A stretch of 64,000 nucleotides of DNA from an uncultured Spirochaetota bacterium (GCA_942493035.1 OW818666.1:4294874-4358873); one strand, 5' to 3'. Positions 31,951 to 56,059 are shown, numbered from the stretch's first letter. Program-made: numbers and translations. The notes: generated from the letters alone by a model not told the origin.

Positions 31951-32463
31951 ATGTTTGACAAGATTGTTCTCGGTTTCCTCATGGAAACAAAAATGAACGG
32001 TTATGAAATAAAGAAAACTATGGAGAAAAGTACAAACTTTTTCTTCAATACAAGTTATGGTAATATATATCCGACACTTAAAAAGCTTGAAGAGGCTGGA
32101 CATCTTACATCCGAAGAAGAGATCAAGAACGGCAAGCTGAACAAGTCATACTCGATAACCAAAAGTGGAGAGCAGGTGTTTAAACAATGGCTTGGAGAAC
32201 ATTCAGATATTGCAATGATACGTGATGAAGCACTCTGCCGTTTATTTTTTTACTCACATCTGGAAAAAGATAAAATTATAGATGAATTGCATTCATATAT
32301 CGACAGACTTGAGGCCCAGGCTGATACTATGACGAAATTAAGAAAGAAATTTCAGAATTATAAAATAGATTCCTGGAAAATGAAGTCACTCGATTTCGGA
32401 ATTGACTACTATACGTATATGCGTAAAAGCTTTCTGAAGATACTTAAAGAGATCATTGAGTAG
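31951..32463 (+). CDS. PadR family transcriptional regulator
   Basis: PadR winged HTH (GYEIKK...GNIYPTLKKLEEAGHL). Confidence 0.8.
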   Translation: MFDKIVLGFLMETKMNGYEIKKTMEKSTNFFFNTSYGNIYPTLKKLEEAGHLTSEEEIKNGKLNKSYSITKSGEQVFKQWLGEHSDIAMIRDEALCRLFFYSHLEKDKIIDELHSYIDRLEAQADTMTKLRKKFQNYKIDSWKMKSLDFGIDYYTYMRKSFLKILKEIIE

Positions 32464-32628: not shown

Positions 32629-33060
32629 TCATTTTTCGGCACATAAAGAGTATCTTCGTTGTCCCGTATCCTTCATCTCTCTTATAAAAGATGCTATAGT
32701 AGTAAAATCGGGCATGCTGTCTGCTGATAAAGCTCTGAATATTATATTCTCATGGCAGGCTTTCATTATCATTCGTGATGAAATAATTCCGCGGGAATAT
32801 GCCAGCAGAATTATTTTTAATAATATTGCCGGATCGTAAGCTGGGGCGCCTGTAAAATCATTTTTGTATTTCTTTGATAATCCTGAAAGATCAATCCTGT
32901 TATCCACCATCCAGTTTATGGTATGCTCGATGGTTCCAGGAAGAATCTGTGTACTGAAATTCACAGGTATCATTACTCCCTGCTCGTATGAATAGTATTT
33001 ATATCGGGCCATTGTTCCCTCCAATGACCGACATGTAGCATAACGGTTGTTATTTTGCAA
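32629..33060 (-). pseudogene. IS1182-family transposase, N-terminal fragment (3'-truncated)
   Basis: Residues 20-140 identical to the N-terminal part of the 490-aa transposase at 40643; diverges after REMKD; terminal IR GAGCCTGTAGAAAAAG at 33061-33076. Confidence 0.8.
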
Positions 33061-33102
33061 TCATTTCATACTTTTTCTACAGGCTCGTTGTGCGCAGTAT
33101 TT

Positions 33103-34039: not shown

Positions 34040-34444
34040 TTATTTCACGGTCCAGTTTTCAATTTTTAAATTATGAACTTTTTTGAATTCTTTTGTATTA
34101 TTTGTTACAAGAATTGCATTCTTTGCTAATACTGTCGCAGCAATTATATAATCATTAGGGCCAATAATAGTTCCTTTCAATTCCATTGATGCTCTGATTT
34201 TCGAATAAGCAATTGAGCAATCATCATCAAATGAAATAATTTCGAAGGGTTCAAGAAACCTATTTATATTAACTAAATTTTTAGTTTTATGCTGACTTTT
34301 CTCAGCACCATATAGAAGCTCGGCTTTAACAATGGATGGAATTTTTATATTATTTGGGTTTGTATTATGAATATTATCTACAATCGATTGATATAATCCT
34401 TTAAGAAAATATACGCAAATATTTGTATCTAAAAAATAAATCAT
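34040..34444 (-). CDS. vapC: PIN-domain toxin VapC
   Basis: PIN motifs (FLDTNICVY; TNNTKEF); 4-bp overlap with the antitoxin. Confidence 0.8.
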   Translation of the reverse strand: MIYFLDTNICVYFLKGLYQSIVDNIHNTNPNNIKIPSIVKAELLYGAEKSQHKTKNLVNINRFLEPFEIISFDDDCSIAYSKIRASMELKGTIIGPNDYIIAATVLAKNAILVTNNTKEFKKVHNLKIENWTVK

Positions 34445-34668: not shown

Positions 34669-34745
34669 AGGAAACCTCCTATGTAAAAGATAATAAATTG
34701 TGTGAAAATGTCAAGTATATTAACAAGTATAGTTTAAATGCAATT

Positions 34746-35843
34746 CCTGAATTCAAGTTTGAAATGCAAAAGGAAATTAAAATAGTAGCCTCATGAGAAA
34801 TCTCCATAAAGGATTGAGTCGACCAAAACCAAATCCGAGAGAGATACCCATGAGGCATTTTAAACAAGTACAGTTTGAAGAAAGATTTGTCATGCAAAAA
34901 ATGATTTATTCAGATAAGCCTGTGAAAGAAACTGCTGAATTATTAAATCGTGATAAATCAACAATTTATCGCGAAATTGATAGGAATAAAACAAAAGGCT
35001 ATCATGCACAAGAAGCTCAAGCGGAATATTTAAAGAGGAAAAATTTAAAAAAAAGAAAGCTTGATGTCAATGGCTTACTGCGTTTGATAGTTATAACCTT
35101 TTTAAGGAACGGCGATTCACCCGAATTAATTTCTCAATACCTAAAGACAATGTTTCTGGAAGATGCATCAATGCACTTATCACACGAATCTATATATCAG
35201 TGGTTGTATGCTCAAAAAAATGAAAAGGGTGAATATCGTTTTACTCAATTTTTATTTATAAAACGGAAGAAACGCCAAAATCGCTCAAATACCTATAAAA
35301 ACAGGGCAAAAGATCCTTCGAAAAAGAATATAAGGGAACGCCCTGAAGAAGCAAATGATAAAAGCGAAATAGGCCATCTTGAGGGGGATCTGATTGTAAG
35401 CTCTGGAAATGATGCATATCTTCTTACTCTTGTGGAAAGAAAAGCAGCATTTACATGGGGTATTAAATTGCCTTCAAAAGATGCGGAAACTGTTACACGA
35501 GGAATTACAGAGGCTTTGGGTTCATTACCTGATGGATTTGTTAAATCAATTACATTTGATAATGGTTCAGAATTTTGCATGCATAAGACAATTGAAAATG
35601 CTCTTAACTGTAATGTATATTTTGCTGATCCTTATTCCTCATGGCAACGAGGTCTTAATGAACATATAAATGGGCGTATCAGATATTATCTTCCAAAGAA
35701 AAAAAGTTTCGCACACTTGACAGATGAATTTATTGATGATAGTATTTTTTCTATAAACGCAAGGCCGAGAAAATCCCGTGGTTGGAAATCTCCTGCTGAT
35801 ATTTTAAACTCCCATCTTGTCGCATTTCAAACTTGAATTCAGG
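34746..35843 (+). mobile_element. IS30-family insertion sequence, copy 1 (1098 bp)
   Basis: Perfect 22-bp terminal IRs CCTGAATTCAAGTTTGAAATGC; second copy at 43766-44863. Confidence 0.85.
34793..35836 (+). CDS. IS30-family transposase
   Basis: 347 aa, HTH N-terminus and DDE core (GHLEGDLIV; FDNGSEF). Confidence 0.85.
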   Translation: MRNLHKGLSRPKPNPREIPMRHFKQVQFEERFVMQKMIYSDKPVKETAELLNRDKSTIYREIDRNKTKGYHAQEAQAEYLKRKNLKKRKLDVNGLLRLIVITFLRNGDSPELISQYLKTMFLEDASMHLSHESIYQWLYAQKNEKGEYRFTQFLFIKRKKRQNRSNTYKNRAKDPSKKNIRERPEEANDKSEIGHLEGDLIVSSGNDAYLLTLVERKAAFTWGIKLPSKDAETVTRGITEALGSLPDGFVKSITFDNGSEFCMHKTIENALNCNVYFADPYSSWQRGLNEHINGRIRYYLPKKKSFAHLTDEFIDDSIFSINARPRKSRGWKSPADILNSHLVAFQT

Positions 35844-37549: not shown

Positions 37550-39383
37550 GTGTGTCACGCAAGGAGTATAGAAGATGAAGGAGGGCCCTTCGGAGCCGGT
37601 ATACAGGTACAGGCTTCAAACCGCCTTAAGCTGCATTGGTAAAGAGCTATTGTGGTGAGCGTTAAGGAAAAGGCGTGATAAACACGTCAGGTGCGTTACA
37701 CGGAGACAAACGCAAGTGAATCATTGATGAGGTGTCGAAAGAGCCTACAGTTGAAGTCAAAACCGGGGTACAATGTGGATTTCGGGATAAATCTGAGAGA
37801 AACCTGTCTACTGCTCAGGTGGCTTCCGGCATAAAGATGGTGTGACTGTGTAACAGGCTTTTATATTCAACGTGAGAACCTGTCGTTTTGATGTTAAGGG
37901 AGAACTTCAAGCGGAGGCCCCGCGAGAAAGAGAGTACCGAAGCAAAGCACAGGGGCGGAGTGGTTCGTAGTAGTGAAGAAGTCTCTGTAATGGAGATGGA
38001 GCGAAGGAATCACGTTGTTCAGCTTTAAAGATTGATCAACCGGAAAACGGGAGGAGTTGATTGGATAAAGCAAAACCGTATTATATTTCCAAACATAATG
38101 TCTGGGAAAGCTACAAACAGGTAAAAGCAAACAGGGGTGCTCCCGGCGTTGATGGCGTAAATCTGGCAGATTTTGAGGCAGAATTGAAAAATAATCTGTA
38201 TAAAATCTGGAACCGGATGTCATCTGGAAGTTATGTACCTTCTCCTGTGCGTCGGGTTGAGATACCGAAAAGCGATGGGAAAACCCGGACACTCGGGATT
38301 CCCACAGTGTCTGACCGGATAGCGCAGATGGTAGTCAAACGTGAGCTCGAACCGGTATTGGAAAAAGTATTTCATCACAGCTCTTACGGATATCGCCCGA
38401 TGCGGTCTGCAAAAGATGCTGTTGCAAGTGCCCGTAAAAACTGCTGGAAATACGACTGGGTGTTAGACATCGACATTAAAGGATTTTTCGATAATATCGA
38501 TCATGACCTCATGATGAAAGCAGTACGTCGGCATACAGAAAGCGGATGGGTTAGACTGTACATAGAGCGATGGCTGAAAGCACCCGTTATGACAACTGAA
38601 GAAGGCCTTCAGCAACGAACACAGGGAACACCTCAGGGCGGAGTGATAAGCCCGCTTCTTGCAAATCTGTTTCTTCATTATGCATTTGATGTCTGGATGG
38701 GGAAAAATTATCCGTCAGTATCTTTTGAAAGATATGCGGATGACTGTATCTGTCACTGCCGCACTGAAGATGAGGCAGTCAGGCTGAAGGAAGCGCTGGA
38801 AAAGAGAATGGCTGAATGCAGGCTCGAACTCCATCCGGAAAAGACAAAGATAGTATATTGTAGAGATGACGCAAGAAAGGGCAGCTACCCGGTAGAATGC
38901 TTTGATTTTCTGGGTTTTACATTTAAAGCACGAAGGTCAAAGACGAAGCATGGGAAATATTTTATCAACTTCAGTCCAGCGGCGAGTGATAAGGCATTGA
39001 AGAACATGAGAATAACCATGAAAGCGTGGAATGTTCATCAGCGAAGCAGAGAATCACTTGAGGAATTATCCTGTAGGTTCAATGCGAAAATCAGAGGATG
39101 GATCAACTATTATGGGAGTTTTTACAGATCAGCGATGTACCCGACTTTACGTAATTTTGATTTAATTCTTTCGAGATGGGCAATGAAGAAATATAAACGT
39201 TTAAGAAATCACAAACGGAGAGCCAGGCACTGGATAGAACGTATTGCGATGAAAGAGCCGTGTTTATTTTCGCATTGGAGAATTCTTTACGGTAACGGTT
39301 GAACAACAAGAGCCGGATGAATCGAGAGATTCACGTCCGGTTCCGTGAGAGCGTAGAGGGGAGGTTCCTCTGCGCCACTCGAC
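37550..39383 (+). mobile_element. group II intron (class-C-like), copy 1, 1834 bp
   Basis: Starts GTGTG; domain V GAGCCGGATGAATCGAGAGATTCACGTCCGGTTC after the ORF; ends ...CGAC; identical to copies at 51095 and 53925. Confidence 0.85.
38061..39302 (+). CDS. group II intron reverse transcriptase/maturase (no endonuclease domain)
   Basis: 413 aa, RT domains 0-7 with YADD, plus maturase X domain. Confidence 0.9.
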   Translation: MDKAKPYYISKHNVWESYKQVKANRGAPGVDGVNLADFEAELKNNLYKIWNRMSSGSYVPSPVRRVEIPKSDGKTRTLGIPTVSDRIAQMVVKRELEPVLEKVFHHSSYGYRPMRSAKDAVASARKNCWKYDWVLDIDIKGFFDNIDHDLMMKAVRRHTESGWVRLYIERWLKAPVMTTEEGLQQRTQGTPQGGVISPLLANLFLHYAFDVWMGKNYPSVSFERYADDCICHCRTEDEAVRLKEALEKRMAECRLELHPEKTKIVYCRDDARKGSYPVECFDFLGFTFKARRSKTKHGKYFINFSPAASDKALKNMRITMKAWNVHQRSRESLEELSCRFNAKIRGWINYYGSFYRSAMYPTLRNFDLILSRWAMKKYKRLRNHKRRARHWIERIAMKEPCLFSHWRILYGNG

Positions 39384-39497
39384 AGCAACCTAATGTGGCT
39401 GAATACTTTTAGAACCTGGCAAAAAGATTTTAAAAGAAAATGAATTGAAAAACTCGCTAACGTCAGTTAGCGTGAACGTTATGCGAAAGAGCGGGGG

Positions 39498-40160
39498 CTA
39501 AAACCGCACGTCCTGTGCGGTTTTAGAAAGAAAAAATTTACACTTTTTATTCAATACACATTTATAACATAAAGGATTTCTATTACAAATCAATCTAGTA
39601 ACATCTAATAGACCATAATTATAATCTCTGAATTTTCTCAGTGGTGTTAAACTATCTGATAAATCAGCAAACCATTTTTTTCTTATTGTTTCACCATCCG
39701 TATTAAACCCAAAAAATCTACCATACAAGCGAACTATGTTGCTATCAATTATATATTCACGCTTGTTTAAATGTAGTGATAAAAAAGCTGAAGCAACGTA
39801 CTCTCCTACACATGGTAATTTTAAAAGTTCTATTTTTGAATCGGGTATTTCTTTTAAAGTATTTAATTGTTCGCATAACTTTAAAAATCGTTCATACCTC
39901 CAATTTAGGCCAAGAGTAAGGAAAATATTTTTAGGTGAATCAATAAATTGTTGTGAGGCATTATATTTTTTTATAAAATCAATGTATACTGGTAAAACCT
40001 GATCAGCATTAGTTCGTTGTAATAGAATCTCTGCAGTAAGTGCATGAAACTTATTTTTTGTATTTCTCCATTCAAACGAAGTATAAAATTTTTTTCCTGC
40101 AAGTATTATTTTATTTTGAAAATACAGAATATCTTTCTTGTCCAATTTAAAATCTGTCAT
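39498..40160 (-). CDS. HhH-GPD superfamily DNA glycosylase-like protein with C-terminal 4-Cys cluster
   Basis: HhH motif LLKLPCVGEYVASAFL and cluster CX6CX2CX5C (Nth/MutY-like [4Fe-4S]). Confidence 0.6.
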   Translation of the reverse strand: MTDFKLDKKDILYFQNKIILAGKKFYTSFEWRNTKNKFHALTAEILLQRTNADQVLPVYIDFIKKYNASQQFIDSPKNIFLTLGLNWRYERFLKLCEQLNTLKEIPDSKIELLKLPCVGEYVASAFLSLHLNKREYIIDSNIVRLYGRFFGFNTDGETIRKKWFADLSDSLTPLRKFRDYNYGLLDVTRLICNRNPLCYKCVLNKKCKFFLSKTAQDVRF

Positions 40161-40696
40161 AAATGTTTTTGTTTAAGAAACTCAATATATTTTTGTAAAT
40201 TCATGATTTTAGGTATATAATCTTTGGGGAAATCTTTCCTATATTTTTCAGGGACAACAAGTCTCACATTATACTTATACATCTCATCTAATTGTGTTTT
40301 TGAAATTCCTTGTTGAAGAGTAAATAAATATTTAACTTCGATTTTATCAGCTTCGTTTAAAATTTGTCGCCATCTATCTTTACAGGTAGTTTTGACAGCA
40401 AGAAATGTCATTTCATTGCCTGGAAATAGAATTTTTTTGTATAATTCAATATTTGGAAAAATAAAATCAGGTTTTTTATTCTGTTCTGTTACTGCTTGTG
40501 CAGAAAAAGGTATATGGTTTTCATCAAACATATATGATAAATGATTCTCTAGAGAATGACCGGCCCTTGATTTTCTCCTATTTAAAATGGAGTTTGCGAC
40601 CATTACTAAATTTTCAACTGAATCAAAAGTCTTACTAATGTATTGTTTATATCTATCATTTTCAGTACACAGATTCTTCCTGGAACCATCGAGCAT
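40157..40696 (-). CDS. small nuclease-like protein, possibly PD-(D/E)XK; N-terminus fused to IS1182-derived sequence
   Basis: 179 aa, 4-bp overlap with the glycosylase gene; the first 12 codons or so lie in the IS1182 fragment. Confidence 0.35.
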   Translation of the reverse strand: MLDGSRKNLCTENDRYKQYISKTFDSVENLVMVANSILNRRKSRAGHSLENHLSYMFDENHIPFSAQAVTEQNKKPDFIFPNIELYKKILFPGNEMTFLAVKTTCKDRWRQILNEADKIEVKYLFTLQQGISKTQLDEMYKYNVRLVVPEKYRKDFPKDYIPKIMNLQKYIEFLKQKHL

Positions 40697-42115
40697 ACCA
40701 TAAACTGGATGGTGGATAACAGGATTGATCTTTCAGGATTATCAAAGAAATACAAAAATGATTTTACAGGCGCCCCAGCTTACGATCCGGCAATATTATT
40801 AAAAATAATTCTGCTGGCATATTCCCGCGGAATTATTTCATCACGAATGATAATGAAAGCCTGCCATGAGAATATAATATTCAGAGCTTTATCAGCAGAC
40901 AGCATGCCCGATTTCACTACTATAGCATCTTTTATAAGAGAGATGAAGGATGATGTAAAAACAATATTCACAAACGTGCTACTTGTATGTAATGAGATGA
41001 ATTTATTAGGCGGAACCGAGTTTGCTCTTGACGGATGCAAGATGAGTTCAAACGCAGCTAAAGAGAACAGCGGAACATTTTCTGATTTGAAGAAAAAAAA
41101 GGATAAACTTGAATCTACTGTGAGTTTTCTTTTGAAAAAGCAGATTGAAAACGACTCTGACGATTTTAACGGGAAAGAGAATAATACCGTAAATATTGAG
41201 CAGAGAGTTGAACGTCTTGTGAAAAAGGCAGACAAGATAGAAAAGTTTCTTAAAGAAAAAACACCAAAGTTAAAAACCCGAAGCGGTGAGTGCCAGAGCA
41301 ATATCACTGATAACGAGAGCGCGAAAATGAAAACATCGCATGGAGTAATTCAGGGATATAACGGTTTGGCACTGGTTGATGCAAAACATCAGGTTGTTGT
41401 TAATGCCGAAGCCTTTGGCTCGGGTCATGAGCATGATCTCCTTGTACCAATGATCGAAGGAGCAAAGAAAAATTCAGAAGCTATTGGTCTTGGCTCTAAT
41501 TATTATAAAGGGAAAAGGATTATAGCAGATACAGGTTCATTCAAGGAGGAGAATCTTGAATATCTGTCCTCGGAGGAAATAGACGCATACATTCCGGACC
41601 AGCAATTCCGCAAACGTGATCCGAGGTTTTTAACAATGAGCAGACATAAAAACCATGGTGATAAACCATACACAAAAGATGATTTTAAATATGACAAGGC
41701 ATGCGACAGTTTCACATGTCCTGCCGGTAAATTACTGAAATACTCAGTTAACCAGAAACTTGCTAACACCGAAGGGAGAAGATATATTTCATCAAGAAGC
41801 AACTGTAATGAATGCATTTTAAGGAATAAATGTCTCCGCTCTGAGAAGACACGATATAGAACTCTTTATGTAGTTGATAAATATTTTGACCGCAACTATT
41901 CCGAAGAGATGAAATTAACAATTGATACAATTGAAGGCCGTGAAATTTACAGCAGGAGGATGGGTATTGTTGAGCCTGTATTTGGCAATATCAGAAGTTG
42001 TAAAAATATCTGCAGATTTACTTTAAGGACAAAGAACAAAGTGAATATCCAATGGATTTTATATACGATTGTTCATAACATAGAAAAGATAAGCAGATAC
42101 GGAACTACTGTGTGA
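40643..42115 (+). CDS. IS1182-family DDE transposase (N-terminus replaced)
   Basis: 490 aa; shares 120 identical residues with the 32629-33060 fragment. Confidence 0.8.
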   Translation: MFISIIFSTQILPGTIEHTINWMVDNRIDLSGLSKKYKNDFTGAPAYDPAILLKIILLAYSRGIISSRMIMKACHENIIFRALSADSMPDFTTIASFIREMKDDVKTIFTNVLLVCNEMNLLGGTEFALDGCKMSSNAAKENSGTFSDLKKKKDKLESTVSFLLKKQIENDSDDFNGKENNTVNIEQRVERLVKKADKIEKFLKEKTPKLKTRSGECQSNITDNESAKMKTSHGVIQGYNGLALVDAKHQVVVNAEAFGSGHEHDLLVPMIEGAKKNSEAIGLGSNYYKGKRIIADTGSFKEENLEYLSSEEIDAYIPDQQFRKRDPRFLTMSRHKNHGDKPYTKDDFKYDKACDSFTCPAGKLLKYSVNQKLANTEGRRYISSRSNCNECILRNKCLRSEKTRYRTLYVVDKYFDRNYSEEMKLTIDTIEGREIYSRRMGIVEPVFGNIRSCKNICRFTLRTKNKVNIQWILYTIVHNIEKISRYGTTV

Positions 42116-42228
42116 TTCAGGGATAATAAGTGAAATATATACTTCCCGGATAAGAAATGTTATATAAAAATTAAGTTGATTTTTCAGAATAACAGTAGTT
42201 TAATAATTAATGCTTTTTCTACAGGCTC
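40660..42228 (+). mobile_element. IS1182-family element, 5'-truncated copy
   Basis: Right terminal IR CTTTTTCTACAGGCTC at 42213-42228; homology to the other partial copy begins near 40660. Confidence 0.75.
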
Positions 42229-42273: not shown

Positions 42274-43760
42274 GTCTTACTATGTCAAGTTTTCTAAAAA
42301 AATAATCATGCAATTTTTCTTTTTTTAAGAAAAATCTCTTTATCATATACAGTTTTATCTTTCCACATTCTAAATATTATCTTAACCCATTTATTCGAAA
42401 GAGCACGAATAGCAGAAGAATGGTTACATCCTTTTTTACGTAATAGATCATAATATTCGCGAGTCCACGCTTCAAGGCTCAAACTGCAAAATGAGAATTG
42501 ATATAATGTATCCCTAAATGATTTATTACAACCTCTTCGCATTTTAATGACATGTAAATATTTCCCACTCTGAATTGTTACTGGACATGTACCGGCATAA
42601 CATTGAACAGTTTGATACGATTCAAAACGCTTTTGTACATCCCCAAAATGCATTAAAAGTCTTGGAGCTAGTCGATCAGCAGCACCCGGCAATGAAGAAA
42701 ATATTGTTGAATATTCATTCGCAGCGTACAACATTAATATTTTTTCTTCTACCTGTTTTATCGATTTCATAAGGAACAGTAATTGATCAACAATAATCAA
42801 CACTCTCAAGGAATAACATTCCTGTATAGTTTTATTAGGAGATATTGTTTGATCCTTTAATAAACAATAAAATTCTGACTTCCTTTTTTTAGTCATATAT
42901 TTAACATCTTTAATCAACTCAAGATAGTCTTCGAAAGTTGCATTTATTATCTGTTCCGGTTTATTTAAAACTTTCAATAAATTCAGTGGAACGCTCGTAA
43001 AACCGTCAAAAAAGTCTGTAAATATAGGGAAATACTGATGCAAGTCGTTCTTCAACCTGTTTTCAAAACGCGTTTTTTCTTGTAAAAGCATTTCAAGTGT
43101 TTTGCCGTGCATTTTTAACGCTTCACAATTGTTACTAGATTTTATTATCGGGGTAAAGCGATTAAAATCCTTAAAAAGTATTAGTGCAATATTGTACGCA
43201 TCAAAGTTATCATCTTTTTTTGAGGACACCGAATATCGGTCTTTAAATCTATTAACACAAAAAGGATTCAATCCATAAACCTGATAACCTAAAGCAAGAA
43301 GATAATCCGCAAGAATATTTTTATCTGTTTCAATACCGATGAAAATTTCCTCCTTTGCAGAATGTATATTTTCAATTGCATCAATCAATTTCTTAAAGCC
43401 CTGTTTCGTTACATCAAAACGAAACTTGTTGACAACTTCCTCCTTTTCATTTAAAATACATACATCATCATGTGTTGACGACCAATCAATACCAATGTAA
43501 GTTTTCATAAGTCGCTCCTTTTATAGATATTGTGGAAACCTTTTATTCCATTTCGCCTATATATCAGGAGCTCTCGATGGAGCATACTTACTATAAATGG
43601 TATTGAAAGGTTATATAATTCGGGAGAACAGAACCGCAGGAAGTCTTTGTTAGGCAGGCACATTGAGTTCTTCCCGAATTATCCAGTATAAAAAGAATAA
43701 GTATCAATTCAGATGACACAAAGAATAAAAATCTGAATTAATACAAACATAACATATAGG
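42274..43760 (-). mobile_element. IS110-family element, copy 1 (about 1487 bp), inserted in an attC centre
   Basis: Identical to 45820-47306; no terminal IRs; flanks are attC halves. Confidence 0.8.
42306..43508 (-). CDS. IS110-family (DEDD) transposase
   Basis: 400 aa; N-terminal YIGIDWS motif and C-terminal transposase_20-like domain. Confidence 0.85.
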   Translation of the reverse strand: MKTYIGIDWSSTHDDVCILNEKEEVVNKFRFDVTKQGFKKLIDAIENIHSAKEEIFIGIETDKNILADYLLALGYQVYGLNPFCVNRFKDRYSVSSKKDDNFDAYNIALILFKDFNRFTPIIKSSNNCEALKMHGKTLEMLLQEKTRFENRLKNDLHQYFPIFTDFFDGFTSVPLNLLKVLNKPEQIINATFEDYLELIKDVKYMTKKRKSEFYCLLKDQTISPNKTIQECYSLRVLIIVDQLLFLMKSIKQVEEKILMLYAANEYSTIFSSLPGAADRLAPRLLMHFGDVQKRFESYQTVQCYAGTCPVTIQSGKYLHVIKMRRGCNKSFRDTLYQFSFCSLSLEAWTREYYDLLRKKGCNHSSAIRALSNKWVKIIFRMWKDKTVYDKEIFLKKRKIA

Positions 43761-43765
43761 CACAC

Positions 43766-44863
43766 CCTGAATTCAAGTTTGAAATGCGACAAGATGGGAG
43801 TTTAAAATATCAGCAGGAGATTTCCAACCACGGGATTTTCTCGGCCTTGCGTTTATAGAAAAAATACTATCATCAATAAATTCATCTGTCAAGTGTGCGA
43901 AACTTTTTTTCTTTGGAAGATAATATCTGATACGCCCATTTATATGTTCATTAAGACCTCGTTGCCATGAGGAATAAGGATCAGCAAAATATACATTACA
44001 GTTAAGAGCATTTTCAATTGTCTTATGCATGCAAAATTCTGAACCATTATCAAATGTAATTGATTTAATAAATCCATCAGGTAATGAACCCAAAGCCTCT
44101 GTAATTCCTCGTGTAACAGTTTCCGCATCTTTTGAAGGCAATTTAATACCCCATGTAAATGCTGCTTTTCTTTCCACAAGAGTAAGAAGATATGCATCAT
44201 TTCCAGAGCTTACAATCAGATCCCCCTCAAGATGGCCTATTTCGCTTTTATCATTTGCTTCTTCAGGGCGTTCCCTTATATTCTTTTTCGAAGGATCTTT
44301 TGCCCTGTTTTTATAGGTATTTGAGCGATTTTGGCGTTTCTTCCGTTTTATAAATAAAAATTGAGTAAAACGATATTCACCCTTTTCATTTTTTTGAGCA
44401 TACAACCACTGATATATAGATTCGTGTGATAAGTGCATTGATGCATCTTCCAGAAACATTGTCTTTAGGTATTGAGAAATTAATTCGGGTGAATCGCCGT
44501 TCCTTAAAAAGGTTATAACTATCAAACGCAGTAAGCCATTGACATCAAGCTTTCTTTTTTTTAAATTTTTCCTCTTTAAATATTCCGCTTGAGCTTCTTG
44601 TGCATGATAGCCTTTTGTTTTATTCCTATCAATTTCGCGATAAACTGTTGATTTATCACGATTTAATAATTCAGCAGTTTCTTTCACAGGCTTATCTGAA
44701 TAAATCATTTTTTGCATGACAAATCTTTCTTCAAACTGTACTTGTTTAAAATGCCTCATGGGTATCTCTCTCGGATTTGGTTTTGGTCGACTCAATCCTT
44801 TATGGAGATTTCTCATGAGGCTACTATTTTAATTTCCTTTTGCATTTCAAACTTGAATTCAGG
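43766..44863 (-). mobile_element. IS30-family insertion sequence, copy 2
   Basis: Same 22-bp IRs; 2 amino-acid differences from copy 1; inserted 5 bp from the IS110 copy 1 end. Confidence 0.85.
43773..44816 (-). CDS. IS30-family transposase
   Basis: 347 aa, near-identical to 34793-35836. Confidence 0.85.
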   Translation of the reverse strand: MRNLHKGLSRPKPNPREIPMRHFKQVQFEERFVMQKMIYSDKPVKETAELLNRDKSTVYREIDRNKTKGYHAQEAQAEYLKRKNLKKRKLDVNGLLRLIVITFLRNGDSPELISQYLKTMFLEDASMHLSHESIYQWLYAQKNEKGEYRFTQFLFIKRKKRQNRSNTYKNRAKDPSKKNIRERPEEANDKSEIGHLEGDLIVSSGNDAYLLTLVERKAAFTWGIKLPSKDAETVTRGITEALGSLPDGFIKSITFDNGSEFCMHKTIENALNCNVYFADPYSSWQRGLNEHINGRIRYYLPKKKSFAHLTDEFIDDSIFSINARPRKSRGWKSPADILNSHLVAFQT

Positions 44864-44870
44864 AATTGCC

Positions 44871-45819: not shown

Positions 45820-47306
45820 CCTATATGTTATGTTTGTATTAATTCAGATTTTTATTCTTTGTGTCATCTGAATTGATACTTATTCTTTTTATACTGGATA
45901 ATTCGGGAAGAACTCAATGTGCCTGCCTAACAAAGACTTCCTGCGGTTCTGTTCTCCCGAATTATATAACCTTTCAATACCATTTATAGTAAGTATGCTC
46001 CATCGAGAGCTCCTGATATATAGGCGAAATGGAATAAAAGGTTTCCACAATATCTATAAAAGGAGCGACTTATGAAAACTTACATTGGTATTGATTGGTC
46101 GTCAACACATGATGATGTATGTATTTTAAATGAAAAGGAGGAAGTTGTCAACAAGTTTCGTTTTGATGTAACGAAACAGGGCTTTAAGAAATTGATTGAT
46201 GCAATTGAAAATATACATTCTGCAAAGGAGGAAATTTTCATCGGTATTGAAACAGATAAAAATATTCTTGCGGATTATCTTCTTGCTTTAGGTTATCAGG
46301 TTTATGGATTGAATCCTTTTTGTGTTAATAGATTTAAAGACCGATATTCGGTGTCCTCAAAAAAAGATGATAACTTTGATGCGTACAATATTGCACTAAT
46401 ACTTTTTAAGGATTTTAATCGCTTTACCCCGATAATAAAATCTAGTAACAATTGTGAAGCGTTAAAAATGCACGGCAAAACACTTGAAATGCTTTTACAA
46501 GAAAAAACGCGTTTTGAAAACAGGTTGAAGAACGACTTGCATCAGTATTTCCCTATATTTACAGACTTTTTTGACGGTTTTACGAGCGTTCCACTGAATT
46601 TATTGAAAGTTTTAAATAAACCGGAACAGATAATAAATGCAACTTTCGAAGACTATCTTGAGTTGATTAAAGATGTTAAATATATGACTAAAAAAAGGAA
46701 GTCAGAATTTTATTGTTTATTAAAGGATCAAACAATATCTCCTAATAAAACTATACAGGAATGTTATTCCTTGAGAGTGTTGATTATTGTTGATCAATTA
46801 CTGTTCCTTATGAAATCGATAAAACAGGTAGAAGAAAAAATATTAATGTTGTACGCTGCGAATGAATATTCAACAATATTTTCTTCATTGCCGGGTGCTG
46901 CTGATCGACTAGCTCCAAGACTTTTAATGCATTTTGGGGATGTACAAAAGCGTTTTGAATCGTATCAAACTGTTCAATGTTATGCCGGTACATGTCCAGT
47001 AACAATTCAGAGTGGGAAATATTTACATGTCATTAAAATGCGAAGAGGTTGTAATAAATCATTTAGGGATACATTATATCAATTCTCATTTTGCAGTTTG
47101 AGCCTTGAAGCGTGGACTCGCGAATATTATGATCTATTACGTAAAAAAGGATGTAACCATTCTTCTGCTATTCGTGCTCTTTCGAATAAATGGGTTAAGA
47201 TAATATTTAGAATGTGGAAAGATAAAACTGTATATGATAAAGAGATTTTTCTTAAAAAAAGAAAAATTGCATGATTATTTTTTTAGAAAACTTGACATAG
47301 TAAGAC
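45820..47306 (+). mobile_element. IS110-family element, copy 2
   Basis: Identical to copy 1; inserted between ATGTG and GCGAAG of an attC centre. Confidence 0.8.
46072..47274 (+). CDS. IS110-family (DEDD) transposase
   Basis: 400 aa, identical to 42306-43508. Confidence 0.85.
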   Translation: MKTYIGIDWSSTHDDVCILNEKEEVVNKFRFDVTKQGFKKLIDAIENIHSAKEEIFIGIETDKNILADYLLALGYQVYGLNPFCVNRFKDRYSVSSKKDDNFDAYNIALILFKDFNRFTPIIKSSNNCEALKMHGKTLEMLLQEKTRFENRLKNDLHQYFPIFTDFFDGFTSVPLNLLKVLNKPEQIINATFEDYLELIKDVKYMTKKRKSEFYCLLKDQTISPNKTIQECYSLRVLIIVDQLLFLMKSIKQVEEKILMLYAANEYSTIFSSLPGAADRLAPRLLMHFGDVQKRFESYQTVQCYAGTCPVTIQSGKYLHVIKMRRGCNKSFRDTLYQFSFCSLSLEAWTREYYDLLRKKGCNHSSAIRALSNKWVKIIFRMWKDKTVYDKEIFLKKRKIA

Positions 47307-47422: not shown

Positions 47423-47758
47423 TTAACCTACTAATTTATACTTTTTTAAAGATGACTTATCTTTTTTAAGTATAGAAAGCATTCTTTGCGCTGGCCCTGC
47501 AGGATGATTCTTTCCTGATTCCCACGCCTCTACAGTTTTTTTTGAAACACCTAAAACGTATGCAAAGATTGATTGTGTTAAACCTAATTCATTTCGTATT
47601 TCCTTTATTTCTTTTCCTTTATAATCTGGAAGCGGGGCAACGGTCATAGTATGAGATTTTAGTCCTTTTACTTTTTCACCCTTTTCATATTTTATAGCTT
47701 CTTCTAATGAATTGATTAAATTTTCACCAATGGTTAAATCTTTATAAGTTTTTTTCAT
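47423..47758 (-). CDS. higA: HigA-like XRE-family HTH antitoxin
   Basis: HTH (IFAYVLGVSKKTVEAWESGK). Confidence 0.65.
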   Translation of the reverse strand: MKKTYKDLTIGENLINSLEEAIKYEKGEKVKGLKSHTMTVAPLPDYKGKEIKEIRNELGLTQSIFAYVLGVSKKTVEAWESGKNHPAGPAQRMLSILKKDKSSLKKYKLVG

Positions 47759-48101
47759 CTTTTTTTCTCCTTAATTCATTTTTAAGGTCTGTAACAAGTT
47801 GTTTTATTATTTTCTTTTCTTTATCACTGATATTGTCTTTCTGATTTTTAGAGTAAGCCATCAAGAGATATATTTTTTCATACACGATAAAGTCTATGTA
47901 TAGTACCCTTATACCGCCGCTTTTGCCTCTATTTTTTAGAGCCCACCTAATTTTTCTAACTCCTCCAGTGCCTTGTATCACCGAACCAGTTTCGGGGTTG
48001 ATGATTAAATATTCTTGGAGATCTTTCAAATCATCATCTGATAATCCAAGATCGTCCCAGGTTTTATTGAAAACATCAAAACTTACAAATTCAATTTTCA
48101 T
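47742..48101 (-). CDS. higB: HigB/RelE-like toxin
   Basis: GGIRVLY...YLL pattern of HigB/RelE toxins; start placed at MKIEFVSF. Confidence 0.6.
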   Translation of the reverse strand: MKIEFVSFDVFNKTWDDLGLSDDDLKDLQEYLIINPETGSVIQGTGGVRKIRWALKNRGKSGGIRVLYIDFIVYEKIYLLMAYSKNQKDNISDKEKKIIKQLVTDLKNELRRKKDEKNL

Positions 48102-48195
48102 ATTGCAAATATATGTCCTATTAGATAGGGTGTCAAGCAAAAAGTTTCATTAAAAAACCGGGCAGGACGCCCGGCCTTAATTTTTTGCCCAATGT

Positions 48196-48301
48196 CATAT
48201 AACGTCTTGCTTAAACGACGTTTGCCAGTTTCACGGTAAATTTTGTATTGAACGAGTTTACCCAACACAAAAAATATTTGCCACTGAAAGTTGGCAAATG
48301 T
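48196..48301 (-). repeat. attC 3' half split by IS21 copy A
   Basis: CATATAACGTCTTGCTTAAACGACGTTTGCC...GCCACTGAAAGTTGGCAAATGTG; the other half lies at 56511-56567. Confidence 0.7.
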
Positions 48302-48476
48302 GCGTATTCCGGCCCAAACCTGCCACTCATTCCGGAAAATGCCTGCCACCTGTTCCGGTGCAAAGTTGCCACCCATTCCGGTTGAAACCTGCCACTTTTA
48401 GGATTTTACCGGAATAAAAAACAAACCATTTCCTTTTAAAACAGAGCCTGATTAATCTGATAAAAAATCAAATCAG

Positions 48477-50054
48477 ATGGAGTTACCGGGCATGTCACAA
48501 AGGAGAATATCGATGAAAAAAATCAGAGAAATCATGCGTCTTCACGAGCAGTCAAAACTTAGTCAGAGACAGATATCCCAAGCCCTTGGAATGTCTCGTC
48601 CGGTCGTCAGCGATTATATTAACAAGGTTAAAACATTCGGATTAACTTTTATTGATATAGAAAATATGCCGGATGAAACGCTTCTAAATATTCTACAGGG
48701 AAATAAAACAGCAGACAATAAACGACATGAAATACTTCAAAAACAATTCCTTCATTTCACGCAGGAGCTAAAACGTCTCGGAGTGACTCGCCAAACTTTG
48801 TGGGAAGAATACATAGAGGAAAATCCAGACGGATACAGTTACTCGCAGTTTTGTTATCATTTTCAGATCTGGCAGAATATGTCAGAGATTACAATGCACA
48901 TTGAACATAAAGCGGGCGACAAACTCTTTGTGGATTTTGCCGGTAAGAAACTTGCCATAACAGACCGGACGACAGGAGAGATAAGAGAGGTTGAAGTTTT
49001 TGTAGCAATCCTGGGAGCAAGCCAGCTTGTCTATGTAGAAGCTTCAATGAGCCAGAAGAAGGAGGAATGGATAAGACTAAATGAAAATGCATTAAGATAC
49101 ATCGATGGTGTTCCACTGGCTATTGTGCCAGACTGCTTAAAATCGGCAGTAACAAAAACAGACAGATACGAACCGGATATCAATCCGGAGTATCTTGATT
49201 TTGCCAGACATTACGGCACAACAATACTTCCTGCACGACCTGCAAAACCGAAAGACAAAGCTCTGGTTGAAGGAGCTGTACGAATTTCATATTCATGGAT
49301 TTACGCCAAGCTTCGTGACCGTGTATTCTTTTCACTTGAAGAACTCAACGCTGCGATCATGGAGTTGCTTGAATCATTCAATTCCCGGACAATGCAGCGA
49401 CCTGGTGTAAGTCGACGGGAACTTTTTGACAGCATTGAAAAGAGTGAACTGCAGCCTCTTCCAGAGGATCTTTATGAAATCAAGAAGTTTAAAATCCTCA
49501 CAGTTCAATTTAACTATCATATCTATCTGAGTGATGACAGTCATTACTACAGTGTGCCATATCGCTATAAAGGGCGGAAAGTAGAAGTACTTTTCACAGA
49601 AAGAGCCGTAGAAGTCTATTGTGGCAACGTAAGAGTCGCCTCACATTTTAGAAACAGGAGAAAAAACGGATACACAACACAAAGGAATCATATGCCGGAA
49701 TCACACAAATGGGAGGATAATTGGAACCCGGAAAAACTGACCAATATTGCAAAACTAAAAGGCGATGCTGTGGTAACTGTAATTGAAATAGTTCTCTCCT
49801 CCCGGCAGCATCCTGAGCAGAGTTATAAAACATGCCTCGGAATATTTGCCCTAACTAAAACATATGGAGAAATCCGACTTAACCGTGCTTGTGAATTGGC
49901 TCTCTACTATGAAAACTGCACATACAAGATGATTAAAAATATTCTAAGCAACAACATGGATCAAGCAGGTGAAGAAGATAAAGACTCGGAATTCACCCTA
50001 CCTGAACATGATAACATAAGAGGCAATCAATATTACATGGAGGAATTACAATGA
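48477..50054 (+). CDS. istA: IS21-family transposase IstA
   Basis: 525 aa; HTH N-terminus, integrase core. Confidence 0.85.
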   Translation: MELPGMSQRRISMKKIREIMRLHEQSKLSQRQISQALGMSRPVVSDYINKVKTFGLTFIDIENMPDETLLNILQGNKTADNKRHEILQKQFLHFTQELKRLGVTRQTLWEEYIEENPDGYSYSQFCYHFQIWQNMSEITMHIEHKAGDKLFVDFAGKKLAITDRTTGEIREVEVFVAILGASQLVYVEASMSQKKEEWIRLNENALRYIDGVPLAIVPDCLKSAVTKTDRYEPDINPEYLDFARHYGTTILPARPAKPKDKALVEGAVRISYSWIYAKLRDRVFFSLEELNAAIMELLESFNSRTMQRPGVSRRELFDSIEKSELQPLPEDLYEIKKFKILTVQFNYHIYLSDDSHYYSVPYRYKGRKVEVLFTERAVEVYCGNVRVASHFRNRRKNGYTTQRNHMPESHKWEDNWNPEKLTNIAKLKGDAVVTVIEIVLSSRQHPEQSYKTCLGIFALTKTYGEIRLNRACELALYYENCTYKMIKNILSNNMDQAGEEDKDSEFTLPEHDNIRGNQYYMEELQ

Positions 50055-50809
50055 ACAATCAGGGAACGATTGAAAAGATGCAGGAAATGCGTCTTCACGG
50101 AATGCTCAGTTCATTCCGTGAAACATTCTCTACAGATATGAAAAACAAGTTTACGGTTGATGAAATGGTCGCTCATCTCATCGATGCTGAATGGGATGAA
50201 AGGTATAACAGGAAATTTAAAACTCTGCTTAAAAATGCAGCCTTTAGATATAAGGCAAGTGTTGAAGAGATAGATTTCAAACCATCACGAAAAATTGACA
50301 GAAATCTGATACTCAGATTCTCGACATGTGACTGGATCAAAAAAGGAGAGAGCATTATCATCACCGGTTCTACAGGTGCAGGTAAAAGTTTTATGGCCTG
50401 CGCACTTGGTCATAAAGCATGTATTCTTCGTTATCAGGTTGGATACTACAACTGCTTGAAATTGTTTTCACATCTGAAGTACTGTAAAGTTGATGGATCA
50501 TATTTTAAAGAGATGAATAAAATTAAAAAACTGGATTTGATAATTCTTGATGACTTCGGATTAAAGCCTTTTGATTCAGACTCGCGGTTAATGTTACTTG
50601 AGATGCTTGAAGATCGCCACGGCAGCAGATCGATAATTATTAGTTCTCAAATTCCTACAGATAAGTGGTTTGATCTTATTGGGGATGCGACTATTGCGGA
50701 TGCAATCTGTGATAGACTTCTTCATACTTCACATAAAATAGACATTAAAGGAGATTCTATGAGAAAGGAAAAATCAAAAAATTCTGGACGAAACCTGCCA
50801 CTTGAGTAA
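50051..50809 (+). CDS. istB: IS21-family helper ATPase IstB
   Basis: Walker A motif GSTGAGKSF, 252 aa. Confidence 0.85.
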   Translation: MNNQGTIEKMQEMRLHGMLSSFRETFSTDMKNKFTVDEMVAHLIDAEWDERYNRKFKTLLKNAAFRYKASVEEIDFKPSRKIDRNLILRFSTCDWIKKGESIIITGSTGAGKSFMACALGHKACILRYQVGYYNCLKLFSHLKYCKVDGSYFKEMNKIKKLDLIILDDFGLKPFDSDSRLMLLEMLEDRHGSRSIIISSQIPTDKWFDLIGDATIADAICDRLLHTSHKIDIKGDSMRKEKSKNSGRNLPLE

Positions 50810-51094
50810 TGGTTAGTTCGAAAATGGAAATGGATTAAAAGTGGTAAACTTAAAACCGGAATAGGTGGCAGGTTTCACCGGAATACGTAATTTTACCAGA
50901 TAATTTAATAAAACGTCGCGATGAATTGTTAAATTTAAAAAAAACATTATTAGGTGAATCGACTCAGAAAAATAAAACCACAGATTAAAAGTACATCCGT
51001 GTACTTTTAAAAATTTATAGTAATAAACGCCAAAAACATCGTACAACAAAGGCTAACAGCAGCGCCGGAGTACCGGCTTGGGCTTCGCCACATT

Positions 51095-52928
51095 GTGTGT
51101 CACGCAAGGAGTATAGAAGATGAAGGAGGGCCCTTCGGAGCCGGTATACAGGTACAGGCTTCAAACCGCCTTAAGCTGCATTGGTAAAGAGCTATTGTGG
51201 TGAGCGTTAAGGAAAAGGCGTGATAAACACGTCAGGTGCGTTACACGGAGACAAACGCAAGTGAATCATTGATGAGGTGTCGAAAGAGCCTACAGTTGAA
51301 GTCAAAACCGGGGTACAATGTGGATTTCGGGATAAATCTGAGAGAAACCTGTCTACTGCTCAGGTGGCTTCCGGCATAAAGATGGTGTGACTGTGTAACA
51401 GGCTTTTATATTCAACGTGAGAACCTGTCGTTTTGATGTTAAGGGAGAACTTCAAGCGGAGGCCCCGCGAGAAAGAGAGTACCGAAGCAAAGCACAGGGG
51501 CGGAGTGGTTCGTAGTAGTGAAGAAGTCTCTGTAATGGAGATGGAGCGAAGGAATCACGTTGTTCAGCTTTAAAGATTGATCAACCGGAAAACGGGAGGA
51601 GTTGATTGGATAAAGCAAAACCGTATTATATTTCCAAACATAATGTCTGGGAAAGCTACAAACAGGTAAAAGCAAACAGGGGTGCTCCCGGCGTTGATGG
51701 CGTAAATCTGGCAGATTTTGAGGCAGAATTGAAAAATAATCTGTATAAAATCTGGAACCGGATGTCATCTGGAAGTTATGTACCTTCTCCTGTGCGTCGG
51801 GTTGAGATACCGAAAAGCGATGGGAAAACCCGGACACTCGGGATTCCCACAGTGTCTGACCGGATAGCGCAGATGGTAGTCAAACGTGAGCTCGAACCGG
51901 TATTGGAAAAAGTATTTCATCACAGCTCTTACGGATATCGCCCGATGCGGTCTGCAAAAGATGCTGTTGCAAGTGCCCGTAAAAACTGCTGGAAATACGA
52001 CTGGGTGTTAGACATCGACATTAAAGGATTTTTCGATAATATCGATCATGACCTCATGATGAAAGCAGTACGTCGGCATACAGAAAGCGGATGGGTTAGA
52101 CTGTACATAGAGCGATGGCTGAAAGCACCCGTTATGACAACTGAAGAAGGCCTTCAGCAACGAACACAGGGAACACCTCAGGGCGGAGTGATAAGCCCGC
52201 TTCTTGCAAATCTGTTTCTTCATTATGCATTTGATGTCTGGATGGGGAAAAATTATCCGTCAGTATCTTTTGAAAGATATGCGGATGACTGTATCTGTCA
52301 CTGCCGCACTGAAGATGAGGCAGTCAGGCTGAAGGAAGCGCTGGAAAAGAGAATGGCTGAATGCAGGCTCGAACTCCATCCGGAAAAGACAAAGATAGTA
52401 TATTGTAGAGATGACGCAAGAAAGGGCAGCTACCCGGTAGAATGCTTTGATTTTCTGGGTTTTACATTTAAAGCACGAAGGTCAAAGACGAAGCATGGGA
52501 AATATTTTATCAACTTCAGTCCAGCGGCGAGTGATAAGGCATTGAAGAACATGAGAATAACCATGAAAGCGTGGAATGTTCATCAGCGAAGCAGAGAATC
52601 ACTTGAGGAATTATCCTGTAGGTTCAATGCGAAAATCAGAGGATGGATCAACTATTATGGGAGTTTTTACAGATCAGCGATGTACCCGACTTTACGTAAT
52701 TTTGATTTAATTCTTTCGAGATGGGCAATGAAGAAATATAAACGTTTAAGAAATCACAAACGGAGAGCCAGGCACTGGATAGAACGTATTGCGATGAAAG
52801 AGCCGTGTTTATTTTCGCATTGGAGAATTCTTTACGGTAACGGTTGAACAACAAGAGCCGGATGAATCGAGAGATTCACGTCCGGTTCCGTGAGAGCGTA
52901 GAGGGGAGGTTCCTCTGCGCCACTCGAC
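51095..52928 (+). mobile_element. group II intron, copy 2
   Basis: Identical to copy 1. Confidence 0.85.
51606..52847 (+). CDS. group II intron RT/maturase
   Basis: Identical 413-aa ORF. Confidence 0.9.
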   Translation: MDKAKPYYISKHNVWESYKQVKANRGAPGVDGVNLADFEAELKNNLYKIWNRMSSGSYVPSPVRRVEIPKSDGKTRTLGIPTVSDRIAQMVVKRELEPVLEKVFHHSSYGYRPMRSAKDAVASARKNCWKYDWVLDIDIKGFFDNIDHDLMMKAVRRHTESGWVRLYIERWLKAPVMTTEEGLQQRTQGTPQGGVISPLLANLFLHYAFDVWMGKNYPSVSFERYADDCICHCRTEDEAVRLKEALEKRMAECRLELHPEKTKIVYCRDDARKGSYPVECFDFLGFTFKARRSKTKHGKYFINFSPAASDKALKNMRITMKAWNVHQRSRESLEELSCRFNAKIRGWINYYGSFYRSAMYPTLRNFDLILSRWAMKKYKRLRNHKRRARHWIERIAMKEPCLFSHWRILYGNG

Positions 52929-53092
52929 AGCAACCTAATGTGGCTGAATACTTTTTGTTTTGGGCAAACTGATTTTTAAAAAAAATGAGTTGTTAAACTC
53001 GCTAACGTCAGTTAGCCAAGACGTTATATGTAATGGCAACAAAATTTAAGACCGGGCGTCCATGCCCGGAGAGAAAAGAGGAAATTAATCCT

Positions 53093-53806
53093 ATGAATAA
53101 AATTATAACAGTCGCATTTATTCTATTATTCTTTTCAAAAAGCTATTCTGCAGATAAACACTTATTGATATTTAAACCAATTGAAAACTTGAAATATAAA
53201 ATACAGATTCAGCCTGCTCCAGAATCAGTAATATTAAATAAACTTTTTGGTGCGTATTCTTCCAATAGCATTTTTAAGATGTCTATCAAGGAAAATGATA
53301 AAAATACTTACAAAGTAACATCTTCCTTGATAATATTTAATAAATCAAGCTGTTGTAATCCACTAACTTATCCTGGTTATTTTATTACAACAGATAGAGA
53401 AATTGAAAATATCATAAGCCCTACCGGAGAATTTATTGATAATAGTAATGACTATCTATCAATGGGATGCATATTTGGCTTTAACATTTTAAAACTCAAT
53501 AATAAAGAGAAAAACATTAAACCAGTGATAATTCCTTTTTATTTCCCTGATAAAGAAATTTCAATTGGTGAATCATGGACCTGTAAATTTGAATTTGATG
53601 ATAATGTAAATGCTAACCCATTGTTCATTGATTATACAATAAAAAAAGTATCTGATAATATTGCATATATAGATGGTTACAGTTTAGATAGATTACATAT
53701 CACTGCACAATTTAATATTACAAAAGGTTGTTGGACTAACTATAAGATGTTCGTCAAAAAAGATTCAGAAGAATATTTATTTAAAAGTTTTGAGTTAATA
53801 GAATAG
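53093..53806 (+). CDS. secreted/lipoprotein-like cassette protein
   Basis: Signal peptide MNKIITVAFILLFFSKSYSA; identical to 60970-61683 on the opposite strand; the ORF-track N-terminal extension is translation of the upstream hairpin. Confidence 0.6.
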   Translation: MNKIITVAFILLFFSKSYSADKHLLIFKPIENLKYKIQIQPAPESVILNKLFGAYSSNSIFKMSIKENDKNTYKVTSSLIIFNKSSCCNPLTYPGYFITTDREIENIISPTGEFIDNSNDYLSMGCIFGFNILKLNNKEKNIKPVIIPFYFPDKEISIGESWTCKFEFDDNVNANPLFIDYTIKKVSDNIAYIDGYSLDRLHITAQFNITKGCWTNYKMFVKKDSEEYLFKSFELIE

Positions 53807-53924
53807 GCACAATGCCTTCGCCCATCCGTGGGCTACGGCAGACCGAACTTTGTGTAAATGTTGCCACTACATATAACAAAGGCTAACAGCGGCGCCGGAG
53901 TACCGGCTTGGGCTTCGCCACATT

Positions 53925-55861: not shown

Positions 55862-56059
55862 ATGGCTACTAATTTAAATATCGATATGAAACTGTTAGAT
55901 GAAGTTTATCAAATAGGAAATTTCAAAACAAAAAAAGAAGCAGTAAACGTCGCGCTTAAGGAATATATTCAGAAACATAGACAAAAAGACATTTTGAAAT
56001 ATCTAAATGCTGTTGATTTTGATAAAGACTATGATTACAAAAAAGCTCGAAATAGATGA
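55862..56059 (+). CDS. VapB-like antitoxin
   Basis: Small ORF (MATNLNIDMKLLDEV...) with stop/start overlap with the PIN gene. Confidence 0.55.
   Translation: MATNLNIDMKLLDEVYQIGNFKTKKEAVNVALKEYIQKHRQKDILKYLNAVDFDKDYDYKKARNR

Follow-up and report, generated by a model that had tools for sequence, protein, structure and literature searches.

The stretch of DNA analysed here, hereafter the window, comprises 64,000 nucleotides from an uncultured Spirochaetota bacterium (GCA_942493035.1 OW818666.1:4294874-4358873). Within a cassette of an integron array it carries two open reading frames (ORFs) on the minus strand, one of 220 aa for a DNA glycosylase (39498..40160) and one of 179 aa for a nuclease-like protein (40157..40696). 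It is evident that both are real ORFs, and they overlap by 4 bp (ATGA), in line with the two-gene operon that had been read there in an earlier inspection of the bare sequence. That original prediction had also proposed that a glycosylase excising modified phage bases and a small nuclease, without any methyltransferase, make up an undescribed defence or restriction-like module. We use M, R and G for the genes of the C5-methyltransferase, the restriction endonuclease and the glycosylase, and collect the features of the locus in Table 1.

Table 1. Features at and around the R-G locus, with coordinates counted from the first nucleotide of the window
Feature	Position	Strand	Basis
G gene, full-length, 220 aa, putative HhH-GPD/[4Fe-4S] mismatch DNA glycosylase of the Mig.MthI type	39498..40160	-	Profile, fold, conserved residues
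G+C-rich hairpin, AAACCGCAC-AGGAC-GTGCGGTTT followed by T's	39501..39523	-	Read directly from the sequence
R remnant, 3' 168 codons of an EcoRII-family endonuclease gene	40160..40663	-	Pfam, tblastn, phmmer
Accidental N-terminal extension MLDGSRKNLCT, 11 codons including the ATG	40664..40696	-	Antisense IS1182 DNA
Deletion junction between the R gene and IS1182, 4-nt microhomology TTTC	40660..40663		Base-by-base comparison with the R DNA of locus L009 and with the other IS1182 copy
IS1182-family element, 5'-truncated	40660..42228	+	Pfam DDE_Tnp_1_6 / DUF772 / DDE_Tnp_1
attC 3' half of the preceding cassette, ending in R' (G/TTATGC, 39478-39484)	39384..39478	+	attC repeat family
Group II intron in the central hairpin of an attC site (context, outside the restriction-modification module)	37550..39383	+	Rfam RF01999, RF00029

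The 179-aa ORF was assigned by Pfam to EcoRII-C (PF09019, 8e-58, model positions 5-165 of 165), a nuclease domain of the PD-(D/E)XK type, so that the PD-(D/E)XK-like character suspected earlier was confirmed. Its full-length homologues are 260-390 aa long, and the intact close ones 377-387 aa. When the intact 377-aa endonuclease of locus L001 was compared with the window by tblastn, only its residues 210-377 were found, at 40663..40160 with 77% identity; relative to this homologue, about 209 N-terminal residues are gone. Similarly, phmmer against EcoRII (3HQG/1NA6) aligned residues 18-172 of the ORF with EcoRII 239-394 (2e-45), and the remnant as a whole corresponds to about residues 233-394. 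The 168 endonuclease codons contain no frameshift or stop, and the 11 codons in front of them show no homology to intact endonucleases. Judged by its sequence, the 179-aa protein is a truncated homologue of EcoRII and not the independent small nuclease for which it had been taken.

The truncation leaves the catalytic residues and removes other functional parts of the protein. E271/D299/K324/E337 of EcoRII are retained as E50/D77/K102/E115, and K328-D329-R330, which reads out CC:GG, as K106-D107-R108, with residue roles taken from the EcoRII-C/DNA structure (PMC2770665). On the other hand, helix H10 (R222/E225/Y226/F229) is lost: homology to EcoRII starts at about residue 233, and antisense codons of IS1182 stand before it. 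These four residues of H10 are four of the six that form the pocket for the flipped central base, and H10 together with H11 makes up the larger dimer interface of EcoRII-C, 1600 of 2400 A2 (PMC2770665). The B3-like effector domain EcoRII-N gave no PF09217 match in the 179-aa protein and no tblastn match in the 64 kb; it is present in the R proteins of L001 and L009, and R of a third relative, L010, is a full-length ORF of 387 aa. The remnant is probably dead for restriction and, if translated at all, would start from an accidental ATG in antisense IS1182 DNA. Two short database entries (about 178 aa) were considered as natural EcoRII-C-only enzymes and rejected: P0071 is a split gene that follows directly downstream on EcoRII-N and M. 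P0096 has no called upstream neighbour, and its contig ends about 420 nt away.

The fusion to the insertion sequence (IS) that had been suspected of damaging the N-terminus was confirmed: the endonuclease homology ends at 40663 and the IS1182 homology begins at 40660. In a self-comparison of the window, 40660-40951 matched an inverted fragment at 32959-32668 with 99.7% identity. This fragment runs on to the true 5' end of the IS1182-family element at 33086, and the left end of the element was defined from it. In the copy next to R about 127 nt are therefore missing, among them the left inverted repeat and the first 17 or so transposase codons. Its right inverted repeat ends at 42228 and is followed by AACAAAGGCTAAAC, where the element abuts AAC-AAA-GGCTAAAC, the R''-L'' of an attC site. 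Because neither partner of the junction ends at an IS terminus, the joint points to a deletion by illegitimate recombination and not to transposition. Such a deletion through the 4-nt microhomology would have fused nt ~128 of IS1182 to codon ~210 of R and would have taken M, the promoter region of the operon, the EcoRII-N effector domain and helix H10. As a separate observation, both mapped IS1182 termini (33086 and 42228) directly adjoin the AAC in the R box of an attC site (GCGCACAAC/IS ... IS/AACAAAGGCTAAAC), as if its target were the point of attC recombination.

With regard to G, Pfam gave weak helix-hairpin-helix (HhH) and HhH-GPD matches only, and in NCBIfam the match to mutY (3e-27) fell below cutoff, as did the similarity to Nth. 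G has about 130 homologues, which form a well-conserved family with lengths mostly of 206-263 aa. A profile of 30 family members matched 1KEA (Mig.MthI) in the PDB at 3e-57, ahead of the catalytic domains of MutY (3e-41) and endonuclease III (1e-21); the 1KEA entry is worded "possible G-T mismatches repair enzyme". The AlphaFold2 model of G (predicted local distance difference test score 95.2) found 1kea as the top PDB match of Foldseek, with a template modelling (TM) score of 0.85 and a root-mean-square deviation of 1.9 A. The alignment is end to end (220 aa against 3-219 of the 221 aa of Mig.MthI), and the C-terminal domain with which MutY recognizes 8-oxoguanine is absent from G as it is from Mig.MthI. 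Moreover, the PADLOC model PDLC03398, a restriction-modification (R-M) model of 221 positions labelled 'Type II nicking endonuclease', matches G at 1.6e-27, which marks it as an accessory R-M component; REBASE puts V proteins in the class of this name.

Conserved residues of G point in the same direction. The HhH motif and the C-terminal cluster of four cysteines noted in the original prediction are there, with the correction that the first spacing is X5, one residue shorter than the canonical CX6C (C192-X5-C198-X2-C201-X5-C207); C192, C201 and C207 are found in 30 of 30 family members and C198 in 28. The catalytic Asp of the HhH-GPD fold (D139) and a conserved Glu (E44), equivalent to D144 and E42 of Mig, are likewise present in all 30. 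Residues that separate Mig.MthI from MutY have been given in a mutagenesis paper, in which MutY has V45 for A50 of Mig and EcMutY has S120 for Y126 (PMC2714593). F27/E42/R47/A50/Y126/D144 of Mig correspond to F29/E44/R49/A52/Y121/D139 of G, where R49, A52 and Y121 are invariant in the 30 members and position 29 is F or Y in 29 of them. At the position of Mig L187 (Gln182 in MutY), the family has Tyr182 instead of Leu (29/30), which is hydrophobic/aromatic and so un-MutY-like, yet differs from Mig.MthI. Going by the activity of the family thus named, G is a putative T/U:G mismatch glycosylase of the Mig.MthI type.

The hairpin in Table 1 covers the final 8 codons and the stop codon of G and is kept in the intact cassette of L010. 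It is probably the terminator of the operon, and was missed by a terminator scan because its T-run is short.

To see G in its genomic context, we surveyed 80 loci with G relatives, taking one genome per species from bacteria and archaea, with home-made hidden Markov models (HMMs) on six-frame ORFs followed by Pfam confirmation. A C5-methyltransferase lies within 2 kb of G in 74 of the 80 loci (92%), all confirmed by PF00145, and within 200 nt in 58. The R-HMM matched in 38 loci, 33 of them confirmed as PF09019 (EcoRII-C). The commonest orders were M>G> (25 loci), M>G>R> (20), M>R>G> (5) and R>M>G> (5), and contigs with G homologues likewise showed M-R(EcoRII-N+C)-G, M-G and R(EcoRII-C)-M-G layouts. 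Thus, the nuclease fold and the co-occurrence of the pair elsewhere, on which the original prediction had staked its case, are both present, within methylase-containing R-M systems.

The nearest relatives, L009, L010 and L001, all have the order M-R-G with overlapping genes. R of the window is 87% identical to that of L009 (P0002 on a JGI contig, the closest homologue) and 82% to that of L010, and G is 71% identical to that of L010; contigs searched for an exact match to G of the window gave none. The R gene of L009 is split by an N-gap of the assembly; read through the gap, this locus has the C-terminus of a C5-methyltransferase, followed by an endonuclease with both EcoRII-N and EcoRII-C and by the glycosylase. 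L010, in a Leptospirales metagenome-assembled genome (CAYTNW010000003.1, 470-3745), is an intact version of this M-R-G cassette flanked by attC sites of the window type, an indication that distant Spirochaetota lineages share integron cassettes. The host of the window was itself placed in Spirochaetota through SppA homologues. As had been noticed earlier, there is no methyltransferase beside the pair, and tblastn detected none anywhere in the 64 kb. Since M is present in 74 of the 80 loci of relatives and in L010, the window holds a remnant and not a complete system, and the missing methyltransferase is a deletion rather than a design feature.

The R-G region is flanked by attC-like sites with R''/L''/L'/R' boxes, of which about a dozen occur between 33.9 and 63.6 kb. 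The R-G cassette has its 5' boundary, G/TTATGC, at 39478/39479, about 20 nt past the stop codon of G. At this side the window and L010 are alike as far as ...TTTCG[C/G]A[T/C]AAC, the AAC of the R box, and unrelated immediately after it; the L010 cassette reads window-type attC, M, R, G, the same hairpin and then GCCCCCGCTCTTTCGGACAAC. With respect to the attC sites, the R-G pair points the opposite way from every one of the 8 other cassette ORFs, which together with the divergence of L010 at the R box upholds the earlier view that the genes run antisense to their attC. An alternative that takes 5'-ATAAC-GTCTT-GGCTAAC...GTTAGCC-TTT-GTTAT for the top strand of attC was also considered; the operon would then be sense to attC. 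This reading was rejected because the 8 other ORFs would then be antisense and because of the divergence at the R box. Published group IIC-attC introns insert into the bottom strand and run against the direction in which the cassettes are transcribed (PMC3001079), a rule that had seemed to fit the rejected reading. Being inverted in its cassette, the operon must have been driven by a promoter of its own, upstream of M and now deleted.

No ORF of the Phage_integrase family, as expected for intI, was present among the window ORFs scanned, and the array is either a cluster of attC sites lacking an integrase (CALIN) or extends beyond the window as the far end of a large chromosomal integron. From about 33.9 kb it is heavily invaded by mobile elements, namely three copies of one group II intron, two IS110-family, two IS30 and two IS21 elements, one IS3-family fragment and two IS1182 fragments. 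Integron cassettes have been reported to be enriched for defence systems, with restriction systems of types II and IV prevalent in sedentary chromosomal integrons (bioRxiv 10.1101/2024.07.02.601686).

From these results we consider it very probable that the locus is the downstream two-thirds (R and G) of a three-gene type II M-R-G operon, which was taken up, in inverted orientation, as an integron cassette of the chromosome and truncated. The restriction-related nature of the module suggested by the original prediction is retained by this explanation, and what falls is the claim that it is undescribed. In the intact system, M would make 5-methylcytosine (m5C), most likely in CCWGG, R would cut the unmethylated sites, and G would take T or U from T:G or U:G mismatches arising by deamination. 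The CCWGG specificity is suggested by the E-Y-x-x-F pocket motif, which is conserved in R of L001 and L009. Vsr, encoded next to Dcm, does the same job of T:G correction. The linkage to C5-methyltransferases and the Mig-type identity together suggest that G is a Vsr-like "V" component of an m5C R-M system. For Mig.MthI, too, such a role in mismatch repair has been proposed (PMC2714593, PMC3260424). In its present state, G is an intact orphan, and its product may still serve in T/U:G repair provided that the gene is transcribed.

Changes specific to one lineage were counted with L010 and L001 as outgroups. Non-synonymous/synonymous changes unique to the window were 9/16 in the R remnant and 18/21 in G, and those of the L009 lineage were 8/8 and 17/12. 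There is no sign of accelerated decay, which suggests that the decapitation is probably recent. Moreover, CCWGG is not avoided in the 64-kb window (48 sites observed against 57.6 +/- 7.9 expected), so that an active enzyme without its partner would have many targets and be toxic.

Several points weigh against this explanation or complicate it. All four catalytic residues and the K-D-R motif are preserved in the R remnant, whose ORF is open and shows no excess of lineage-specific non-synonymous change (9/16 against 8/8 in L009), so that some residual function of R is possible from sequence alone. The window is 64 kb of a 4.95-Mb contig, and a protecting Dcm-like methylase could exist elsewhere. 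Tyr182 in place of Leu187 implies that the substrate preference of G may differ from that of Mig.MthI. Residue 159 of G in the window is Ile, a unique change (R159I) at a position that is Arg in 28 of 30 family members (ETRRKKW motif), and the only departure seen in this G at a near-invariant position. Finally, the partial IS1182 copies at 32668-33086 and 40660-42228 overlap by 292 bp and so are not halves of one copy, which suggests a history more complex than a single deletion.

R159I also bears on a darker version of the same history, in which both genes are dead relics and G is untranscribed, orphaned too recently for disabling mutations to have arisen; it differs from the preferred explanation solely in whether G is still expressed. 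We regard it as possible, if on the unlikely side. The deletion has taken the promoter region upstream of M, the genes run antisense to the direction of the array, and the relative-rate comparison points to a recent event, all in keeping with silence, as is a unique substitution at a near-invariant site. On the other hand, all catalytic and cluster residues of G are intact, and read-through from IS1182 or weak internal promoters could still supply transcripts.

It is improbable that the truncated R works as a single-domain CCWGG endonuclease (type IIP-like EcoRII-C), shielded by a Dcm-like methylase from an unlinked locus and with G as its repair partner. EcoRII-C by itself (residues ~183-404) has catalytic activity, and the remnant has the intact catalytic tetrad and K-D-R motif, an ORF that is open and free of signs of relaxed selection, an ATG start and the overlap with G found in intact operons. 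However, it starts at about EcoRII residue 233 and so lacks H10 with the pocket residues R222/E225/Y226/F229 and the H10 share of the 1600-A2 interface. Its native promoter and ribosome-binding context are gone, a promoter scan upstream of R-G gave 11 sites against 9.4 expected, no signal above chance, and no methylase is found in the 64 kb. Very unlikely, too, is that the orphan G has been kept for a use of its own, either in the T/U:G repair of the host at large or in removing a thymine-like modified base (e.g. a 5-substituted uracil) from invading DNA; a related idea is that in the widespread M-(R)-G family the glycosylase adds to restriction and does not serve repair alone. The defence module free of methyltransferase by design, in which the glycosylase excises modified phage bases and a small nuclease cuts abasic or foreign DNA, is hardly credible: the genes do overlap and co-occur elsewhere, integron cassettes are enriched for defence systems (bioRxiv 10.1101/2024.07.02.601686) and the window has no methyltransferase, but a C5-methyltransferase stands beside G in 74 of 80 loci, the 'small nuclease' is a truncated EcoRII with 11 IS-derived codons, the pocket residues of G are those of a Mig-type mismatch enzyme, and the EcoRII-C-only homologues that we checked are split genes or lie near contig ends.

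The truncated M-R-G operon can be compared with several known systems. Mig.MthI of Methanobacterium thermoautotrophicum THF is reportedly encoded on plasmid pFV1 beside the MthTI m5C R-M system (GGCC). G shares with it the size, the fold, the catalytic Glu and Asp, the cluster cysteines, the equivalents of F27/R47/A50/Y126 and the lack of the MutY C-terminal domain, and the relatives of G also adjoin a C5-methyltransferase and a restriction enzyme. The differences are that G is 31% identical to Mig.MthI, with Tyr for Leu187 and X5 for X6 in the first cysteine spacing, that the hosts of its family are mostly bacterial and probably mesophilic, that the partner is of the EcoRII and not the MthTI type, and that the methylase of the window is deleted. 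Compared with EcoRII itself (1NA6, 3HQG; type IIE, CCWGG), R has the catalytic and K-D-R residues, and the intact relatives L001, L009 and L010 have both EcoRII-N and EcoRII-C; R of the window lacks the equivalents of residues 1-232 (effector domain, linker and H10) and carries 11 foreign N-terminal codons.

The resemblance to Dcm-Vsr of E. coli lies in a T:G-correcting enzyme that is encoded beside, and often overlapping, the C5-methyltransferase that causes the mismatch, as the 58 of 80 loci with a distance of at most 200 nt illustrate. However, Vsr belongs to the PD-(D/E)XK-like endonucleases and nicks on the 5' side of the T, whereas G is an HhH-GPD glycosylase predicted to remove the base, so that the two would be analogous and not homologous solutions. 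Our literature search found no paper that joins Vsr, HhH-GPD mismatch glycosylases and cytosine methyltransferases. With 74 of 80 loci linked to a C5-methyltransferase, often with an EcoRII-type enzyme, the G family should be a reliable marker of m5C R-M systems, and it may represent a glycosylase analogue of Vsr well beyond the one archaeal plasmid example usually cited. How tightly and widely this family is tied to C5-methyltransferases is mildly new.

Type II R-M systems in integron cassettes have already been reported (bioRxiv 10.1101/2024.07.02.601686), and nothing in our data supports a new defence mechanism. The present case is like those in being a compact system within an attC-bounded cassette; it differs in that it is inverted, has three genes including a V gene and is cut by an IS-associated deletion. 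It is therefore an example of an R-M cassette decaying inside an IS-ridden integron array, which matters little as a discovery, but it cautions that a "glycosylase + small nuclease, no methylase" layout can be an artefact of truncation.

Apart from the R-G locus, the rest of the array showed a number of features. The cassettes (32500-64000) start right after core genes (PadR-like regulator at 31951-32463). The three group II introns (37550-39383, 51095-52928 and 53925-55758, all on the plus strand) are 1834 nt long, 99.1-99.8% identical and encode a reverse transcriptase (RT)/maturase without endonuclease domain, which in the first copy lies at 38061-39302 (Pfam RVT_1 and GIIM). Each was inserted at the same point of an attC central hairpin, GCCACATT/AGCAACC, and the 5' end of the first copy reads GTGTG after GCCACATT. 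With the strand assignment reached here, the attC top strand carries all three, in the orientation of the cassette ORFs. Two IS110-family elements (DEDD transposase) at about 42274-43760 (minus strand) and 45820-47306 (plus strand) are 99.7% identical and presumably resemble the attC-targeting IS1111 group. The second splits an attC site centrally (AATGTG/IS/CGAAGG), and the first lies between the matching attC 3' half and IS30 DNA.

Moreover, the array contains an inverted IS30-family pair (34740-35843 and 43766-44869) and an inverted IS21-family pair (48301-50890 and 56565-59154, 100% identical). The attC sites between the members of these pairs are flipped relative to the rest of the array, which suggests IS-mediated inversions, and an attC half at 48158-48302 continues at 56505-56566 on the other strand. 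A 908-bp cassette segment with a weak DUF6263 match is duplicated in inverted orientation with 100% identity (53017-53924 and 60852-61759). Three PIN-domain toxin cassettes and one RelE-like toxin cassette, at 34040-34444 (minus), 56056-56493 (plus), 61941-62315 (minus) and 47742-48140 (minus), are all sense to their attC sites.

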